Source: a virus
Taxonomy: Duplodnaviria > Heunggongvirae > Uroviricota > Caudoviricetes
Strand: one strand, 5' to 3'
Virus record (IMG/VR): IMGVR_UViG_2778261667_000017
Length of the DNA: 64,000 nt
A model generated the notes under the pieces. The model was not told the origin of the DNA and ran no database searches. It saw only the letters and a program-made list of their open reading frames with translations. A program made the translations under genes and the position numbers. The stretch's first letter is position 1. Each line of letters starts with the position of its first letter. Positions 1-7,532 of this stretch are shown in pieces.

Positions 1-1128
1 TCACAACGCTACTTTGATCCATCCTTTGCCTCGATCGTCATGATAACGATCGGTTTGCTGTTGTGTTTTATGACCAAGTAGTTTTTGTGTATCTAACCCC
101 TGTTCTTTGTACAGACGTTCAGATAAAGACCTTTGTTCATGGAATGTGGCAGGTGAACCTTCCCCCCAATCAATTCCTGCTAGATCCCTCGCTTTACTGA
201 AATTCATCGTCAATGTATTGGATTTAACCTGCGCGCCACGTTCGGCCTGTGAAGTAGTACGGAAAAAATGTACTAAGTATGGGCTGACTGCGTAGTCACG
301 GCAGCGGGCTACTACATCGCGTAAACTCCAGTTAATCGCGTTGAGACGAAGAGAAAGAGGAATTGCGATTTTGCTCCCGGTCTTTTCCTGAATGATATGG
401 AGATGATCATCCCAAATATCGCTAAATTTCATACGCGAGATATCACCTAACCTCTGACCGGTAACCAGTGCTAACAGCATGGCATTCCCCATATAACGAT
501 GACTGGCATCTGCGATATCAAAGATTTTTTGCCATTCTTCAAGGCTTAACCGTTGTCGGGTAATTTTTCTTCTGGGCTGTTTGGTCGCTAATGCTGGATT
601 ATAGCCAGGAGGGACCTCCCCATAGTGTTGTGCCTCCTTGAATACATCAATTAGAACGGAGCGGACTACTTGCGCCATCCTCGGTTGCCCAGCAGTGATA
701 TACTCGTCAAGCAATTGTGCTATATCCCTTACATCAACGGATGAAATTAACTTCATTCCTGCTCGTTCCCTGAGCAAGGATACTGGTTTGGCTTTCTGTT
801 TATAGGTGTTGAGCTTTATATCGCCACTTTTCAGTCTGTCATCCTGGATTGCTTGATAGCGATCTAACCAGGTTGACGTTGTGATTGCTTTTCCTTTGCT
901 GGTTGCGATCCTGTCACTGATAGCCAGAATCTGCCGGGTTCTTTGCTCAGCCAGGCGTGTATTGGCCTCAGTGGCAATAGCAATGGCTTCAGCTTCGTTT
1001 GCGCCCAAAGAATGAAACTTCCCGGTCACTGGATGCTTATATCGCCAATAGACTTTATTTACTTTTCTGCTATAGAGCGGATACAAGTTCGGGACTGAGA
1101 CATTATTTTTACGTGGTCTGGCTGCCAT
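1..1128 (-). CDS. int: Tyrosine integrase (e14 IntE-like), 375 aa
   Basis: 375-aa ORF; lambdoid integrase N-terminus and C-terminal catalytic region (HxxR...Y); sits at prophage end with xis upstream. Confidence 0.9.
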   Translation of the reverse strand: MAARPRKNNVSVPNLYPLYSRKVNKVYWRYKHPVTGKFHSLGANEAEAIAIATEANTRLAEQRTRQILAISDRIATSKGKAITTSTWLDRYQAIQDDRLKSGDIKLNTYKQKAKPVSLLRERAGMKLISSVDVRDIAQLLDEYITAGQPRMAQVVRSVLIDVFKEAQHYGEVPPGYNPALATKQPRRKITRQRLSLEEWQKIFDIADASHRYMGNAMLLALVTGQRLGDISRMKFSDIWDDHLHIIQEKTGSKIAIPLSLRLNAINWSLRDVVARCRDYAVSPYLVHFFRTTSQAERGAQVKSNTLTMNFSKARDLAGIDWGEGSPATFHEQRSLSERLYKEQGLDTQKLLGHKTQQQTDRYHDDRGKGWIKVAL

Positions 1129-1354
1129 TACTTAAAATCCTTTGTAGAATAATAGAATCACTTTTCTTGATGACAGGAGTAACTAATTCCCCAACTAACT
1201 CTGCGTCCTCACGTACTCGCCAGAGTCGACCTTGTTTCATTGCTGGTGGACAAAATAAATTCTGCTTAGCATAACGACGCAATGTGGACACACTTGGAGG
1301 ATTACTCCTAAATTTTTCCGCAGCCCATTCCTCAAGTGTCAGCATTTGAAGCAT
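1109..1354 (-). CDS. xis: Excisionase, about 81 aa
   Basis: Small ORF overlapping int start; Xis-like motif (TLEEW...RRYAKQ...PPA.K.GR.W); start chosen at internal ATG with GAGG 9 nt upstream. Confidence 0.75.
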   Translation of the reverse strand: MLQMLTLEEWAAEKFRSNPPSVSTLRRYAKQNLFCPPAMKQGRLWRVREDAELVGELVTPVIKKSDSIILQRILSNGSQTT

Positions 1355-1409
1355 TTTTGATAACCTCATTTCTTTTGCTACAAAACTATTTCACTAGTTA
1401 ATTTCGCTG

Positions 1410-1946
1410 TCAGGATTGTTTATGTATCTTATGCAGCTCTTTAAATCGTTCCATAAACATTCCGTAGGCATGACCCGGTGCCAGTGGAATCACTTTGAAC
1501 ATCTCTGTTGCCGGGATACCTTCCAGTACAGGCCAGAAAGAGCCATCATCAAGTCCGAGATCGCGGCGTTCGGTTGCCAGCATGATGAGATCGGCATATT
1601 TCACGGGCGTACTCATAACTGGGGGTAACCCGTATTTCTCACGGATTACGGCGTCTATTTTTTCTTCCATCCGTTTATAGTCAGGAAGAAGGTGTTTCAG
1701 TGGTGCGGGGATGTCCTGGCAATATGCTTCTGTTGCATCATGCATTAACGCTTCAAAAGCAAATTCCTGCGGTACCAGCTGGCTGCAAAGCACCGCATGT
1801 TGGGCGACGCTGTAGAAGTGTGAAAGATGTCCTGCAAAACGACAGATATTTGAAAGGGAAACCGCGATATCGTTAATAACGATGTCATCTTTATTTATCT
1901 TGTCATAATAAAAATGCTTCCCGGAAAAAGTTTTAATAAATGACAT
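1410..1946 (-). CDS. yfdR: HD-domain phosphohydrolase, YfdR-like, 178 aa
   Basis: H...HD motif (ALMHDATEAY); N-terminus MSFIKTFSGKHFYYD as remembered for CPS-53 YfdR. Confidence 0.8.
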   Translation of the reverse strand: MSFIKTFSGKHFYYDKINKDDIVINDIAVSLSNICRFAGHLSHFYSVAQHAVLCSQLVPQEFAFEALMHDATEAYCQDIPAPLKHLLPDYKRMEEKIDAVIREKYGLPPVMSTPVKYADLIMLATERRDLGLDDGSFWPVLEGIPATEMFKVIPLAPGHAYGMFMERFKELHKIHKQS

Positions 1947-2073
1947 TTTGTTCTCCACGTATATGCCCTGCACCGCGCTGAATTCTGGTAAAAAGAATCC
2001 CTTACCATCCGGCGATTATTGAGTAAATTACGTTTCCATAAATGCCCCCGCAGGGGCATTTGCAGTAATGAAA

Positions 2074-2898
2074 TCAGGCGGTGAAAGTACCAATAAAGGT
2101 TTCTACTTTGCTGTCTTTGAATTTCTCAACAAGCAGATCACGAAATTCGTTAGCCATTTCTTCCTGGACTGCTTCCAACTGAATAATGCGCAGAACCAGT
2201 ACAGGACGATCGCCAGTGATAATGCTGAGGCGTAATTTAAACGGACGTTCTTTCAGACCTTCAAACGGAACGCATTTAAATTCAAATGCCACTGGCATAA
2301 TATCTTTGGTCTTCGCTTCGACAGACTCCATCAGGGAGCGTTTTCCGCTGAAGTCATTATCTTCAAAATCAGCGGTCTGGTTTGCTTCAATCGTGATTTT
2401 ACGGACAGCCGCAGCCGCTTTTGTTGCCTGAATAGCGTCACCATTAGCATCAAAGCCTACAAGGTAGTCGGCCCAGTCTTCAATCCATTCTGCCAGTGAC
2501 TTCTGGGAGTTACGCTCGCCATTAACAGACAACAGAGCAGAGAACGGTGCTGTCTTTTTCAGTTTGAGAGTGGCGGTGTTATCTGCATGACCAGGTTCAT
2601 CAATAGTGCCTAGGTTAAGCACACTGACGGCTCGCATATTATCGGCATCGATAAAGCAGCGGGTGCCTTCATCTGCAAGATCTTTAGAATAACGGGTAAA
2701 GTCATCGATGCTGGCAGTGGAAAGCGCACCACGGAAACGGAAGCGATTTAAATTAAATTTTTCCAGATCATGAATGCGGAAATTTTCAGGTAATGCCACT
2801 GCGTCGGCACCAATCTTACTGATAATTTCATTAACACCCTGAGCAGAAATAAGGGCATGGATTTGATTAATTGCGGTTGCGTCTAAGTTCTGAGACAT
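2074..2898 (-). CDS. yfdQ: YfdQ-like protein (DUF2303), 274 aa
   Basis: 274-aa ORF matching remembered YfdQ length and sequence; conserved order yfdP-yfdQ-yfdR. Confidence 0.8.
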
Positions 2899-2963
2899 AA
2901 TAAGTCCTCACTATATAAAGATATTCAGTGATGAGGTAAATAATCAGTTAATTAAGAACGATA

Positions 2964-3326
2964 TTAATAACCTGCTGCGCGGAGTTTTCCGTCAGGTTCA
3001 CCGGCAAGAGTCAGTAATTGTCCCTGGTCTTCCTGCAGAATAGTCAGGCGACCACCGCGATTGACATACATCGGCGTTTCGGTGGTGTCTTCTTCGGAAA
3101 TTTTCCCGCGGTTAGTCGGGCGAACATATGAGAGTTTGTGTTTGATTTTCACACGGTTCTCATCAAATGGTTCGATTTCCAGGTTGAGTGAGACCTTACC
3201 TTTGGTTTTCGTGTTCATCACACCGGAAGCGACTTCACTGAGAACTGCACCGATTTTGGTTTCAAATACGCCGCCGTCCAGCTCCCCGATAAATGCCTGC
3301 ACATCAGTACTGCGTTCGCTAGCCAT
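2964..3326 (-). CDS. yfdP: YfdP-like protein, 120 aa
   Basis: Internal ATG (MASERSTD...) preceded by GAGGAG at 7-nt spacing; longer ORF-track N-terminus lies in the structured GC-rich region. Confidence 0.7.
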   Translation of the reverse strand: MASERSTDVQAFIGELDGGVFETKIGAVLSEVASGVMNTKTKGKVSLNLEIEPFDENRVKIKHKLSYVRPTNRGKISEEDTTETPMYVNRGGRLTILQEDQGQLLTLAGEPDGKLRAAGY

Positions 3327-3339
3327 TTTGCTGCTCCTC

Positions 3340-3790
3340 ATCATATCGACCCTGCAAGGCCGGTTGGTTTCTCCACAAAACAGAGAAGAACACCTGCGGT
3401 GGCAGCCGCCCGGATGGATTGGGTTATGAGCCCGTCGTCCGGTGATGCTCTTCTCTGTTTTGTAAAAAGGACGGTACCAGCCGGAAGCAAGGGTACAAGC
3501 TGGTACCGCCAAGACTACACACAGCATAAAGTTGTGGTGCCGGGCGCCTCCCGGTGCCTAGCGAAGGTTGCACACCAGGCGGGTGGGTATCCACAGAAGG
3601 TCGACTGTCAGCCTCAACCTTTACCCGCGTGCGCTGAGCCGCATTCACCACAACGCTAAGGATTCTCTCTGGTTGAAAATACTTAGCTGTTATGTGCCTG
3701 CTTTTAGCCACATCAGGCGAGGTGGACCTGGTTATTCCCCAACAACAAGGATTCGGTTAATCTGGTTATCCCCAACAACGCAAAAGGAAA
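3340..3790. other. GC-rich structured non-coding region with nested inverted repeats and two direct repeats; candidate ncRNA or early-left promoter region
   Basis: Perfect 15-bp inverted repeat 3375-3389/3449-3463; 10-bp inverted repeat 3472-3481/3499-3508; direct repeats ctggttat(t)ccccaacaac at 3728-3747 and 3762-3780; overlapping ORFs here have non-protein-like composition. Confidence 0.4.
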
Positions 3791-3794
3791 AGAA

Positions 3795-4229
3795 ATGTCC
3801 GGTAATATCTATACGCTGTACAAATCCCACTGTGAAAATGTTGGAAAGTATCGGGGCATTGAAATCAGTGGGGTAGTGTCATCAGTCGAAATAAGCAAAG
3901 TTGAATCAAGGGCAACATTACTTACTCTTCTGGACCTTGTCTTACATGAGCACCGGAAGAAATTCGGCACTCCCTATAATCAGTTGAATGGGAAAAAGGC
4001 TCTGGTTCACCTTATTCTGATGAAGCATCACTGGATGCCAAAACAGATTAATGAGATGAAATTTGATGAACTTCTTCTTTCAATTCAGGATGAACTCACA
4101 CTTGATAAAATAAGCGTAACCGCCCAGAAATTTTTAGATTATCGAGACTGGAGATCACAAATTCATCACTTTGATGATTTTGACGAAAATGAATGGGATC
4201 CTAATTTGTCTGCACAATATCTAAAGTAA
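3795..4229 (+). CDS. Hypothetical protein, 144 aa
   Basis: ORF with AAGGA-type RBS about 8 nt upstream; protein-like composition; no recognisable family. Confidence 0.6.
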   Translation: MSGNIYTLYKSHCENVGKYRGIEISGVVSSVEISKVESRATLLTLLDLVLHEHRKKFGTPYNQLNGKKALVHLILMKHHWMPKQINEMKFDELLLSIQDELTLDKISVTAQKFLDYRDWRSQIHHFDDFDENEWDPNLSAQYLK

Positions 4230-4407
4230 CATCCTGTGATAAAACCGTGATTTCCTGATCCAGTTTTTTTAAGGAGTCTATTGTTTTCTGTCGATAAGAC
4301 AGCACTTCACGAAGCTGGTTTATAGCTGCCAGCTTCTTTGCCATCCACTCGTAAATTTCCTCATTTGTGTATCCGGGCGCGACGATTTTTGGTTCTGTTT
4401 TGTGCAT
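4201..4407 (-). CDS. Hypothetical small protein, 68 aa, predicted helical
   Basis: ATG preceded by GAGGAGG at 6-nt spacing; convergent with the 144-aa gene, 3' ends overlap by 29 nt. Confidence 0.55.
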   Translation of the reverse strand: MHKTEPKIVAPGYTNEEIYEWMAKKLAAINQLREVLSYRQKTIDSLKKLDQEITVLSQDVTLDIVQTN

Positions 4408-4467
4408 TTCACACCTCCTCAAGTTATCAGTTACTTGTTGATGGGGACCAGATTGTTAAAGAGCTAA

Positions 4468-4497
4468 GCGTCCTGTAGGGCGCTTTTTTGTTGCTAA
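4468..4497 (+). terminator. Putative rho-independent terminator
   Basis: Imperfect hairpin (aagcgtcc...gggcgctt) followed by T-run ttttttgtt. Confidence 0.35.
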
Positions 4498-4565
4498 CGA
4501 ATCATCCTGGACTTCATATGCCCCAGGCGGCTACTTCGTGGGCGTCCTGCCTGTTTGTTGTTTTT

Positions 4566-4620
4566 AACACCTTTAAGTTGTAATTTAGTTGTGATTTTGA
4601 ACATTGTCAACAACTTTATG
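4566..4620. promoter_or_regulatory. Operator-like motifs shared with the cI-cro intergenic region (putative OL-type site)
   Basis: aacacctttaagttgtaa (4566-4583) and gtcaacaactttatg (4606-4620) match aacacctaaaagttgtga (6286-6303) and ttacaactttatg (6261-6273). Confidence 0.55.
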
Positions 4621-4673
4621 TGGTTTGAACGTGTAGTCAAGGAGTGCAAGGATTATCAAAAAAAGGAGGTTGT

Positions 4674-5564
4674 ATGGAAGACGCGCTTTACGCTTTTAAT
4701 TACACACAGAACCGGGACAAGTTATTTGCTAACTTGATTAGCATCATTGATGGAATCATTGCAGATGGAGTTGTCCGTGAAGAGGAGGTTCTTTACTTAG
4801 ATACATGGTTACTTGAAGCAAAGCAGATTATCAATAATGGAGTTATAAAAAGTCTATCAGCACGGGTGTCGGATATTCTTGCGGATGGAATAATCACATC
4901 AGAAGAACGTGATGACCTTAAAAATAGCCTTCTCCAAATACAGAGGGAAATTCTTGATATCCCTGAAATTGATTTTTACTCCAAGGATGTAGATGTCCAT
5001 TTACTTAATGGACTATGTAAAGGATTAATTGCTGATCGGAACTTAACTCAAGAAGAAATAAGATATCTTAATTGGTGGCTTGAGCAAAATGGAGCTTTGA
5101 AGAACAACTACCCAGGAAAAAAACTTTATGCACTTGTAAAGGAAATTCTTAAAGATGGGGTTATTACTGAAGATGAGAGTTTAACTCTACATAAGGCATT
5201 AGTAGACTTCACAGGATGTGACTTGGAAAGTGGGGTGGTGGATGGTTTGGCGACCAGGCTGCCTATTGATGTAGGGGCTTCGATAGAGTTAGAGGGTAAA
5301 ACCTATTGTCTTACAGGCACTTTTGTTGCAGGAAAGAGAGCCGTAGTTGAAAATTTGATTAAAAATGCTGGTGGGAACATCAGTAGTGGAATTACTCAAA
5401 AGTTGGATTTTTTAGTAATTGGGACGCTTTCCTCCCGTGATTGGAAATTCTCAAGTCACGGAAGGAAGATCGAAAAAGCTATATCTTATAGGGATGATAA
5501 TGGTGCAAAACTTAAAATTATTTCTGAAGAAATGCTTTTCGATGCATTACCAAGTTCGCGATGA
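4674..5564 (+). CDS. BRCT-domain protein with four N-terminal helical repeats, 296 aa
   Basis: AAGGAGG RBS 4 nt upstream of ATG; C-terminus GKTYCLTGTF...KLDFLVIG...KLKIISEEMLFDAL fits the BRCT pattern of NAD-ligase C-termini; four repeats of about 35 aa with D-G-[IV]-[IV]-x-x-E-E signature. Confidence 0.75.
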   Translation: MEDALYAFNYTQNRDKLFANLISIIDGIIADGVVREEEVLYLDTWLLEAKQIINNGVIKSLSARVSDILADGIITSEERDDLKNSLLQIQREILDIPEIDFYSKDVDVHLLNGLCKGLIADRNLTQEEIRYLNWWLEQNGALKNNYPGKKLYALVKEILKDGVITEDESLTLHKALVDFTGCDLESGVVDGLATRLPIDVGASIELEGKTYCLTGTFVAGKRAVVENLIKNAGGNISSGITQKLDFLVIGTLSSRDWKFSSHGRKIEKAISYRDDNGAKLKIISEEMLFDALPSSR

Positions 5565-6233
5565 CCAGAATACCCTACCTATAACATGAATTCTGGCTCG
5601 TCTATCTTCAAAGGTGAGTATTTCATCTGGGTACTCATCTTTGTTGAAGCTTCTAAGAATCAAGCCACCGTCAGGTAAGTTGATAAGTATTTTAACCCTT
5701 AGCAATACACCATCTCGTACGGCATAAAGATCGCCATCACGAATAGGAATGGTTTGAGAAATATCAACGGCAACAAGATCTCCATTATTGAGAACCGGTA
5801 ATAAACTGTTCCCCCATATTTTTACGATCTTGGCATTAGATGCACATACGCCAGATTTTCTCAAATCTGCTCTTCTTAACGGAAACCAGTCAATAGCTGA
5901 TTCAACTATTTCAGCCAGACATCCGTTACCTGCCGATAACTCGACATCTAAAACAGGAATGTTTACGAAAATATCGGGGTCTAATGCGGTGCTTTCTGCT
6001 TCTTTTACAACAAGATCAGGTATGGATGCGTTGTCTTCAATACCAAGTTGTAACCACTTTTGTGATACACCTAAAACTTTTGCAATTTCTTTAATTTTGC
6101 GCGGTTGTAGAGTTTCGCCATTCTCTATTTTGGCTACAGATTGTTGTGAAAGTCCAATTTTTTCAGCTAGTTGAGCTTGGCTCATGCCAGCTTTCTCTCT
6201 ACCTATCTTTAATCGTTCTGCCAGTGTTTTCAC
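5547..6233 (-). CDS. cI: CI-type repressor (XRE HTH + S24 LexA-like peptidase), 228 aa
   Basis: N-terminal HTH (MSQAQLAEKIGLSQQSVAKIENG), C-terminal S24 autopeptidase motifs; divergent from cro. Confidence 0.9.
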   Translation of the reverse strand: MKTLAERLKIGREKAGMSQAQLAEKIGLSQQSVAKIENGETLQPRKIKEIAKVLGVSQKWLQLGIEDNASIPDLVVKEAESTALDPDIFVNIPVLDVELSAGNGCLAEIVESAIDWFPLRRADLRKSGVCASNAKIVKIWGNSLLPVLNNGDLVAVDISQTIPIRDGDLYAVRDGVLLRVKILINLPDGGLILRSFNKDEYPDEILTFEDRRARIHVIGRVFWSSRTW

Positions 6234-6368
6234 AACATATCCCTCTCTTTTTTGATGAGGTTACAACTTTATGTTTTAGCTTTCCAACACCTAAAAGTTG
6301 TGATAAAAGTTGTTAATGTTGTATTCTTGCAACTCGTAACAACTTAACTACCTAAAAAGGAGAAAGCT
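6234..6368. promoter_or_regulatory. cI-cro intergenic operator/promoter region (OR-like)
   Basis: Divergent genes; repeated ACAACTTT/AAAGTTGT half-sites at 6261-6345. Confidence 0.65.
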
Positions 6369-6617
6369 ATGACACCTGAGCAATTAGCCTTATCGGAGGC
6401 AATCGCTCTGGCTGGTGGTCAATCAGAATTGGCTCGGAAGCTCACAGCCAGCAGCGGTCATTTAGTAAAGCAACAACATGTCTGGAACTGGTTGAACAGA
6501 GAAAAGCGTCCCCCTGCAAAGCTCTCGATATTCATTGAAAAGACCACTGGCATATCAAAAGAAAAATTACGTCCAGATATTTTTCAAAAGATTAAAGATT
6601 CATCAGATGAAAAGTAA
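6369..6617 (+). CDS. cro: Cro-like HTH regulator, 82 aa
   Basis: Small HTH protein divergent from cI; AGGAG RBS. Confidence 0.8.
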   Translation: MTPEQLALSEAIALAGGQSELARKLTASSGHLVKQQHVWNWLNREKRPPAKLSIFIEKTTGISKEKLRPDIFQKIKDSSDEK

Positions 6618-6639: not shown

Positions 6640-7197
6640 GTGGGTAAGCATCACTGGAAAGTAGAAAAACAGCCTAAGTGGTACGTGAAAGCTGTCAGAA
6701 AAACTATCGCAGCGTTGCCGGGGGGTTACGCTGAAGCAGCTGACTGGCTGGATGTAACAGAGAACGCATTATTTAATCGCCTTCGTGCCGATGGCGATCA
6801 AATTTTCCCGCTGGGATGGGCAATGATTTTACAACGTGCTGGTGGCACTCACTTCATTGCTGACGCTGTGGCGCAGTCTGCAAATGGCGTCTTTGTGTCT
6901 CTTCCTGACGTCGAGGATGTGGACAACGCCGATATTAACCAGCGTCTGCTGGAAGTCATTGAACAGATCGGCAGTTATTCAAAACAGATTCGTTCAGCAA
7001 TCGAAGACGGTGTAGTGGAACCGCATGAGAAGACAGCAATTAACGACGAGCTGTACCTCTCAATTTCGAAGCTGCAGGAGCATGCAGCACTTGTCTACAA
7101 AATTTTTTGCATTTCAGAAAGTAATGACGCCCGCGAGTGTGCAGCTCCGGGCGTCGTGGCGTCGATTGCTTCTGGTTGTGGAGAAACTAACGCATGA
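6640..7197 (+). CDS. CII/YdaT-like regulator, about 185 aa (GTG start)
   Basis: Position immediately after cro; AAGGAG 6 nt upstream of GTG at 6640; family assignment tentative. Confidence 0.55.
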
Positions 7198-7532
7198 ACA
7201 GTTTAACAACACACTACCGTCGCTCGCAACTGATTGCGCTTCCTGTACCGGGTGGAAAAGCGAAGGTGGAGTATTGCTATGCAGTGAATGTACCAGGTGA
7301 CAGGGAAATTGTAACCCACAGCTTTGCTGAGTGGGCTGTGGGTGATTTCAACCGGCAGAAGGAGACAGTCCTTTGCGACAAGTTAACCGCTGGTTCAAAG
7401 ATCACTACGGAGTGCCCGTCAGAGTCATTCGTTGGGAGCCGGAAACACAACGGGTTATCTACCTCCGTGAAGGCTATGAGCATGAGTGCTTCAGCCCGCT
7501 CGAACAGTTTCGTCGTAAATTCAGGGAAATAG
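7194..7532 (+). CDS. Hypothetical protein; frame uncertain in 3' half
   Basis: ORF-track frame is protein-like only in its first half; an alternative frame 7373-7552 reads more protein-like. Confidence 0.3.

Follow-up and report, generated by a model that had tools for sequence, protein, structure and literature searches.

The left end of a 64,000-nucleotide (nt) stretch of virus DNA (IMG/VR record IMGVR_UViG_2778261667_000017, Caudoviricetes; the whole stretch is called the window here) is a lambdoid prophage of the SfIV/SfV/KplE1 type from Escherichia coli. Beside the operator region at this end two open reading frames (ORFs) point at each other and overlap at their 3′ ends, a plus-strand ORF for a 144-amino-acid (aa) protein (the large gene) and a minus-strand ORF for a 68-aa protein (the small gene). 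Both proteins have so far been annotated merely as hypothetical. An earlier note, made from the window sequence alone, had described the two ORFs, their 29-nt overlap, a GAGGAGG site ahead of the small one and the nearby operator region; the ORF list and the sequence confirm the pair and its overlap, the GAGGAGG site is present (Table 1), and the operator region is borne out by a promoter and half-sites shared with the cI-cro region. The pair is evidently a mobile accessory cassette of two genes, carried by temperate phages of Enterobacterales, since close relatives hold other cargo in its slot. It evidently also constitutes a functional module, because the convergent 3′ overlap is kept across at least eight genera and three genomic contexts. 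We propose that the large gene may serve the lysogen and that the small gene may shut it off during lytic growth.

Two proteins of catalogued families

Homology searches, which the earlier note had proposed together with structure searches, placed both proteins in catalogued families; its remark that neither product is recognisable holds in so far as these families have no known function. The 144-aa protein falls in NCBIfam family NF033230 (ECs1072 family phage-associated protein; 157.8 bits against a cutoff of 70, residues 4-144) and matches phrog_5286 over residues 1-144 (E = 1.5e-90), and the 68-aa protein matches phrog_1744 over residues 1-68 (E = 2.6e-34). A hidden Markov model (HMM) search of 1.84 billion representatives gave 76 clusters for the large protein, and nearly all full-length members measure 143-157 aa. 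Near-invariant residues of this family are L50, R54, L64, G66, A69, H72 and W134. The AlphaFold2 model of the large protein, built from a 48-sequence alignment, is all-helical, with a mean predicted local distance difference test score (pLDDT) of 94.1 and a predicted TM-score (pTM) of 0.88. A profile search of the large family against PDB sequences matched nothing. Pfam and PHROGs searches of the Klebsiella and Serratia homologues returned nothing beyond families without known function, and we found no functional study of the ECs1072 family, of either protein or of sb50 (the small partner in Salmonella phage ST64B) in the literature.

Distant small partners were recognised at the profile level. 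The Serratia partner matches phrog_3501 at E = 5.6e-25 and phrog_1744 at E = 0.0038, and hhalign aligned the 68-aa family with the Serratia, ST64B and Klebsiella partners at 73% probability (P = 3.1e-5). These small proteins also share with the 68-aa protein the N-terminal pattern M-x-K-x-E-P-x4-P-x9-W, as in their starts, MDKNEPYFFNPDLSSEQLEDWL... (Serratia) and MQQPYFFNPGMTTQQLEDWL... (Klebsiella). Homology between the window protein and the three partners is therefore supported at the sequence level. For sb50 the annotated start is too long. The small proteins are acidic and hydrophilic (grand average of hydropathy, GRAVY, -0.29 to -1.01; isoelectric point 4.5-5.7), and the window protein probably forms a coiled coil; a profile search of the small family against PDB sequences returned coiled-coil entries only, which we regarded as noise. 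The helical structure that the earlier note predicted for the 68-aa product finds support in these entries only.

The two coding sequences show the marks of purifying selection. In a comparison with an allele of 78% identity (locus L013), 40.5 synonymous and 51.5 non-synonymous differences were counted for the large gene, a ratio of non-synonymous to synonymous rates (dN/dS) of 0.19-0.22. The small ORF, outside the overlap, has nine synonymous and seven non-synonymous differences from the same allele (dN/dS 0.18), and its frame is the only stop-free one of the six and has the lowest dN/dS of the six. Homologous small ORFs outside the overlap give dN/dS of 0.05-0.12 in five independent pairs, at a synonymous rate (dS) of 1-2.8. 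The Prokaryotic Genome Annotation Pipeline (PGAP) annotates both genes in RefSeq genomes, the small one in every complete genome sampled. Because of the full-length family matches, the PGAP calls, this selection and the co-occurrence described below, we take both ORFs to be real genes.

Phage records are less complete. The 68-aa gene is unannotated in the SfIV record, and the large gene is unannotated in the records of ST64B, KPP5665-2 and ST846-OXA48phi9.2, the latter two being the annotated Klebsiella records examined. In one E. albertii contig the small homologue is frameshifted at an A7 run. A Proteus prophage (L107) has two copies of the small family, at 3233-3805 (-) and 3849-4082 (-); one is free-standing, 67 aa long and very like the window protein, and the other lies inside an ORF of 190 aa, which shares ~227 nt with the large gene.

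Distribution, context and overlap

Of 5,426 complete E. coli genomes, 415-421 carry the large gene and 412-416 the small one, with both on one stretch in 408, that is, in ~408 of the ~415 carriers of either; ~8% of complete E. coli genomes thus carry the cassette. Searching phage genomes with tblastn gave large-gene copies of 29-32% identity in ST64B and several Klebsiella phages, and a genome scan from a 4-sequence alignment, which yielded three loci, added a Serratia copy of 35% identity. Each of these copies has a small minus-strand ORF that converges on the large gene and overlaps its 3′ end. When 104 loci were surveyed with HMMs of both families, the large gene was present in 99, and in 98 of these the opposite strand carried an ORF of the small family. 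The partner is likewise present in six further loci, from Yersinia, Pectobacterium, Proteus and two P2-like prophages of Pantoea, and none of the 110 loci has a small-family ORF without the large gene. The pair is kept down to ~25-35% identity for the large protein and 15-21% for the small one, in phages and prophages of Escherichia/Shigella, Salmonella, Klebsiella, Serratia, Yersinia, Pectobacterium, Proteus and Pantoea.

Single-partner damage does occur. Only the small ORF is disrupted in ~8-9 loci (of the L009, L030, L035, L039, L065 and L072 types), with an intact large gene beside a disrupted small one in ~7 Klebsiella-type loci and the E. albertii contig; only the large ORF is disrupted in ~2-3 loci (L078, L103). 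Some of these disruptions are possibly assembly errors. The pattern of small-gene loss fits a partner that would be required only in lytic growth.

The cassette sits in three settings, each within a lytic transcription unit: between the early-left genes and cI/PL in Escherichia, Shigella, Yersinia, Pectobacterium and Proteus; between the Q antiterminator gene and the holin gene in the ST64B, Klebsiella and Serratia loci examined; and in the cox-to-A early operon of the P2-like Pantoea prophages. Polarity is constant in all three, the small gene running along the lytic operon and the large gene against it.

Positions 2900-4563 of the window are 98-99% identical to Shigella phage SfIV and many E. 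coli prophages. In SfV, SfII, PhiR29_1, mEp460_4F5, ST64B and 118970_sal3 the flanks (2900-3725 and 4496-4563) are kept and 3726-4495 is replaced. The left flank that these cassette-free relatives keep comprises yfdP and an STnc100-like RNA, to 3725 or 3779, and between the flanks they hold unrelated cargo without known function. The earlier note had counted absence from related prophages as evidence against its reading of the ORFs; the pair is indeed absent from SfV, SfII, PhiR29_1 and mEp460_4F5, and this marks it as accessory cargo, not as unreal genes. Mosaic boundaries at the locus fall outside the pair and never between the two genes. In one Yersinia prophage a SieB gene adjoins the cassette.

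The overlap measures 29 nt in the window and 53, 62, 71-83, 74, 95 or 194 nt in other subfamilies; for the 67-aa Proteus copy it is 0. Inside it, dS falls to 0.06-0.56 and dN/dS of the small ORFs climbs to 0.5-3, a collapse of dS that is expected if the large-gene frame dominates the dual-coded segment. The overlapped tail of the small protein is weakly constrained. The Serratia, ST64B and Klebsiella versions contain a palindrome, TGGGATCCCA, that encodes Trp-Asp-Pro on both strands. The degenerate copy in the window reads TAG on the minus strand, and therefore the small protein ends at 68 aa there and not at 80-85.

Transcription signals and neighbouring features

The operator region beside the pair can be identified as OL/PL, the left operator and promoter. 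A promoter, TTGACA-17-TAAATT, lies at 4610-4582 on the minus strand and is bracketed by ACAACTT/AAGTTGT half-sites, AACACCTTTAAGTTGT at 4566-4581 and ACAACTTTATGT at 4610-4621, which are found again in the cI-cro intergenic region (OR, 6263-6302). With this assignment the 68-aa ORF becomes the first ORF of the leftward early transcript, in the direction of the lytic operon, and the large gene is antisense to that operon. Within the minus-strand open frame (4201-4422), an internal ATG yields the 68-aa product.

On the plus strand, a hairpin with the sequence AAGCGTCCTGTAGGGCGCTT followed by TTTTGTTG makes a strong intrinsic terminator (Table 1), and we found no other convincing terminator 3′ of the large gene in the window. 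The large mRNA should therefore run ~250 nt past its stop codon, antisense to the entire small ORF. The earlier note had argued that the arrangement forces antisense transcription across both gene ends; this is in the design of the locus, the terminator of the large mRNA lying beyond the whole of the small ORF. Hairpin sequence varies between alleles, with pairing preserved. On the minus strand the same segment belongs to the PL leader and comes just ahead of a boxA-like sequence, GCTCTTTAACAA, which we take to be an exact match to the E. coli rrn-type boxA. It has one exact match, where 0.38 matches with at most one mismatch are expected per window, and it is kept in all SfIV-type loci and in PhiR29_1. 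A hairpin followed by boxA is the order of rrn leaders and not that of lambda nut sites. On the minus strand the hairpin may also contribute to a hairpin-boxA leader of the rrn kind, and hairpin and boxA together may act as an N-independent antitermination site that doubles as the plus-strand terminator of the large gene.

We considered the small protein as an antiterminator of the lambda N type and rejected it. Its N-terminus, MHKTEPKIVAPGYTNEE, has no arginine-rich motif, members of the family are also met after Q and within a P2-like operon, and the hairpin comes before boxA and not after it as in an N-type nut site.

Promoters or terminators precede the small gene elsewhere too. The Yersinia and Pectobacterium small ORFs lie within ~100 nt downstream of a near-consensus promoter (TTGACA-17-TAATAT in Pectobacterium; a TAGATT -10 in Yersinia) and a conserved leader. 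The Q-holin versions have an intrinsic terminator on the small-gene strand, 15-25 nt ahead of the small ribosome-binding site, a placement that would open the small gene chiefly to polymerase that resists termination.

The sequence ahead of the large gene contains two direct repeats, CTGGTTAT(T)CCCCAACAAC, at 3728-3746 and 3762-3779 on the plus strand. The segment 3726-3779 is common to PhiR29_1, where a different plus-strand cargo gene comes next, which suggests a common regulatory or recombination module for the cargo of this slot.

Table 1. Features at the left end of the window, in order of position
Feature	Position	Strand	Remarks
Integrase gene	1-1128	-	Followed by excisionase, then yfdR-like HD hydrolase
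yfdQ (DUF2303)	2074-2898	-	
yfdP	2964-3326	-	Next in order is the convergent pair
Upstream region of large gene	3728-3794	+	Two direct repeats and AAGGAA
AAGGAA	3784-3789	+	5 nt ahead of the large-gene ATG
Large gene	3795-4229	+	144 aa, ATG start; from ORF list and sequence
Weak terminator-like hairpin	4111-4126	-	Inside the large ORF, ~75 nt past the small stop; pattern match only
Degenerate palindrome copy, TGGGATCCTA	4194-4203		Minus strand reads TAG
Small gene	4201-4407	-	68 aa; ATG at 4407, stop at 4201-4203
3′ overlap of the coding regions	4201-4229		29 nt, both stop codons included
Shine-Dalgarno site GAGGAGG, small gene	4420-4414	-	6 nt ahead of the ATG
boxA-like GCTCTTTAACAA	4453-4464	-	In PL leader, between hairpin and small gene
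G+C-rich hairpin with A-run and T-run flanks	4466-4485		Strong plus-strand intrinsic terminator
Leader RNA, 'block B'	4496-4563	-	Directly downstream of PL-like promoter; phage backbone, not cassette
OL/PL (assigned from sequence)	4566-4625	-	Promoter and flanking operator half-sites
BRCT-domain gene	4644-5564	+	Right of the convergent pair
cI (helix-turn-helix and S24 peptidase)	5547-6233	-	
cro-like gene	6369-6617	+	Followed by replication genes

Block B, the leader next to PL, measures ~60-68 nt (GAACAGGCAGGACGCCCACGAAGTAGCCGCC...GGATGATTCG) and contains one hairpin with two compensatory base pairs. It is kept in phages of Escherichia, Shigella, Salmonella, Klebsiella, Citrobacter, Yersinia, Pectobacterium and Pantoea whose immunity regions differ. 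In position and size alone it resembles HK022 putL, a processive antitermination RNA (PMC9378689).

The BRCT-domain gene encodes 306 aa (phrog_3989; BRCT domain C-terminal), has a weak partial match to the PADLOC candidate PDC-S48, and is inserted between OL/PL and cI, converging with cI over an 18-nt overlap. Because it is absent in SfIV and MB19-type relatives, we regard it as a second accessory gene in an immunity-adjacent hotspot.

Following lytic transcription, the next feature immediately past the cassette is a structured prophage small RNA of the STnc100/PasD type (bioRxiv 10.64898/2026.05.13.724894), at 3461-3684 (-) in the window and at 2028-2223 (-) and 1188-1421 (-) in loci L021 and L027. 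Its score in the window is 43.2 bits, just below the Rfam gathering score of 47; beside the homologous cassette of a Klebsiella phage it is 108 bits. The RNA is also present in the cassette-free SfV and PhiR29_1. It has a terminator-like hairpin at its end and is perhaps transcribed from a promoter of its own that diverges from the large gene. Over the G+C-rich region of this RNA, hypothetical coding sequences SfIV_34 and SfIV_35 are annotated in L001 (3665-4345 and 4233-4577), and a PGAP 'frameshifted hypothetical protein' pseudogene in L007 (4642-4952); all are probably non-coding RNA mis-called as protein genes. SfV (L002) has adjoining matches to isrK and C4 antisense RNA (64 and 82 bits) at 7014-7202 (+), in its early-right region; the first 12 kb of the window gave a match to neither. 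Locus L008 has, 3′ of its large gene (4635-4758), a 124-nt element that matches unannotated DNA in 934 E. coli genomes at ~86%, with a boxA-like TGCTCTTTAAAAA near it.

Interpretation and comparison with known systems

We give a probability of about 0.4 to the reading that the large gene encodes an accessory protein expressed in the lysogen and the small gene a lytic-phase partner that shuts it off. Expression of the two genes in different phases is suggested by their constant polarity behind repressor- or antiterminator-controlled promoters, by the terminator layout and by the accessory distribution. In the lysogen PL would be repressed, and only the large gene would be transcribed, from its own promoter. 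Its product would be a lysogen-phase factor, most plausibly for superinfection exclusion, defence or host modulation, because the gene lies beside cI, the site of sieB-type genes, and because SieB adjoins the cassette in the Yersinia prophage. Upon induction or infection, termination-resistant transcription from the lytic promoter would traverse the cassette, and head-on transcription together with RNA duplex formation would silence the large gene. The small gene is conserved at the protein level, so its product should act as a protein too. The most economical role we can propose is that this acidic, presumably coiled-coil protein binds and neutralises leftover large protein, sparing the phage's own lytic growth. 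ECs1072, the family's founding gene, gave an array signal in uninduced cultures of O157 Sakai (PMC2241611), the sole mention of the family that we found in the literature and the only, indirect, sign of its expression from a repressed prophage.

Several results weigh against this reading. The fold of the large protein, although confidently predicted, has no structural relative in PDB or BFVD by Foldseek (best E = 0.59 and 0.66). Pfam, NCBIfam and PADLOC searches of the two window proteins yielded only families without known function, neither protein matches any defence-system model of PADLOC-DB 2.0, and neither matches a known exclusion or toxin-antitoxin family. No consensus sigma-70 promoter was found in the window upstream of 3795, and in the Klebsiella version the best promoter match for the large gene is just 9/12. 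In the L008 lineage, whose large protein is 56% identical, the small partner went undetected. Finally, the 99 surveyed loci are not independent samples, because most belong to one Klebsiella/Salmonella subfamily; independent lineages number about eight.

A more specific form of the reading is doubtful, and we offer it tentatively: ECs1072-family proteins, with their new fold, might be the effectors of an undescribed prophage system for exclusion or abortive infection, the small gene a dedicated self-antidote made from lytic promoters, and the overlap an RNA-level off-switch, in a cassette portable to any lytic operon. If the large protein is an exclusion or host-modulating factor of the lysogen and the small one shuts it off in the lytic phase, the locus would exemplify a new design of prophage accessory system, in which a protein antidote is encoded antisense to its target and delivered by an early or late transcript of the phage, and would offer a compact tool for lifecycle-dependent gene control. 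If not, annotations are corrected all the same, the small gene being missing from several phage records and the large gene from others. Seen as one unit, its polarity fixed relative to lytic transcription, the former pair of orphan ORFs becomes a system open to experiment.

The best placed of the alternatives, though an unlikely one, is a developmental switch, in which the large protein favours or maintains lysogeny, the small early protein counteracts it and the convergent promoters form a toggle. The cassette does always lie just downstream of a lytic promoter or antitermination region (in the PL leader, after Q or after cox) and in the window adjoins OL/PL and cI, and convergent transcription is built into its layout. 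However, close relatives have the same regulatory backbone with unrelated cargo in place of the cassette, and therefore it should be dispensable for the lysis-lysogeny decision; moreover, its presence in unrelated immunity regions and in three types of operon is hard to square with a specific regulator, and no helix-turn-helix or other nucleic-acid-binding signature is seen in either protein. The likeness to mutually interfering regulator pairs drawn in the earlier note may still hold, but neither protein has a recognisable DNA-binding domain.

We also consider it improbable that two unrelated genes simply share a bidirectional terminator and move together by adjacency, the small one as an early lytic gene and the large one as an accessory gene in reverse. 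Linkage has outlasted divergence to ~25-35% and 15-21% identity and spans three unrelated contexts with the pair never split, the small family is found in 0 of 110 loci without the large gene, and mosaic boundaries lie outside the pair. Chance adjacency would nevertheless accommodate the variable overlap (29-194 nt, and 0 for the 67-aa Proteus copy), the poorly constrained overlapped tail of the small protein and the large gene that stands alone in L008.

The earlier note had further compared the pair to toxin-antitoxin modules, and this comparison fares badly. In such an addiction module, whether type II-like or type I/III-like with 3′-overlapping antisense control, one product would be toxic and be restrained by the other or by its antisense RNA. 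It would serve prophage stabilisation or abortive infection, and it would account for the tight convergent linkage (as in 3′-overlapping type I systems of prophages), for the co-occurrence in ~408 of ~415 E. coli genomes with either gene and for a small two-gene unit that travels between phages. But Pfam (distant homologues included), NCBIfam and PADLOC gave no toxin-antitoxin or defence family matches. A type II system is contradicted by the convergent genes, which form no co-directional operon, and by the lack of a DNA-binding antitoxin domain; a type I system by small proteins that are hydrophilic and acidic, unlike membrane-active toxins, and by protein-level selection on both partners, neither of which is a non-coding RNA. 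Addiction is further at odds with the loci in which only the small (~8-9) or only the large (~2-3) ORF is disrupted and with the solitary large gene of L008, and joint production in the lysogen is not expected when the lytic promoter ahead of the small gene is under repressor control. We therefore think a classical toxin-antitoxin module unlikely and hold the wider class to be hardly more credible.

That the 68-aa ORF is no gene, just a frame left open by chance within the PL leader or the untranslated 3′ part of the large mRNA, is close to refuted: it is short, was left unannotated by the SfIV depositors and has a frameshifted homologue in the E. albertii contig, but against this stand its strong ribosome-binding site, the only stop-free frame and lowest dN/dS of six, homologues in seven other genera with dN/dS of 0.05-0.12 at saturating dS, PGAP calls in all complete genomes sampled and the two corresponding PHROG families.

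Returning to the preferred reading, of a lysogen protein with a lytic-phase partner, we compared the cassette with known prophage loci; by its sequence matches it belongs to NF033230/phrog_5286 and phrog_1744 and to none of the systems compared. Like the morons (rexAB, sieB and bor of lambda; old, tin and fun of P2), it comes and goes between phages that are collinear elsewhere, it adjoins cI and PL as sieB-type exclusion genes do, and its large gene shows the classic signs of prophage expression, opposition to the lytic operon and a terminator of its own, with equivalents in other loci. It differs from morons in having no sequence or fold similarity to any of them and in consisting of two convergent protein genes, one of them on the lytic transcript.

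Two further systems come near the cassette in layout. In the 3′-overlapping convergent type I loci txpA/RatA and bsrG/SR4 of Bacillus subtilis, a hydrophobic membrane toxin is paired with a non-coding RNA. These too are convergent prophage units with mutually antisense 3′ ends, whereas both partners of our cassette appear to be soluble proteins under purifying selection. Coliphages 186 and P2 have face-to-face lytic and lysogenic promoters (pR and pL of 186) that form a transcriptional interference switch in the core, repressor-encoding immunity region. The cassette likewise sets lysogen and lytic units against each other, and the stronger lytic promoter would be expected to be favoured after derepression; unlike the 186/P2 region, it is dispensable cargo and encodes no recognisable DNA-binding proteins.

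In function the nearest analogues are the morons, together with BstA/aba (Salmonella phage BTP1) and SieB/Esc (P22, lambda), proteins by which prophages abort infection and which come with built-in self-immunity. The aba element is reportedly a DNA element within bstA, and Esc is said to be an internal in-frame product of sieB. The logic we propose is the same, a lysogen protein encoded beside the repressor that would harm phage growth, combined with an element of the locus by which the phage exempts its own lytic cycle; in the cassette described here, the candidate antidote would be a separate small protein encoded on the opposite strand.

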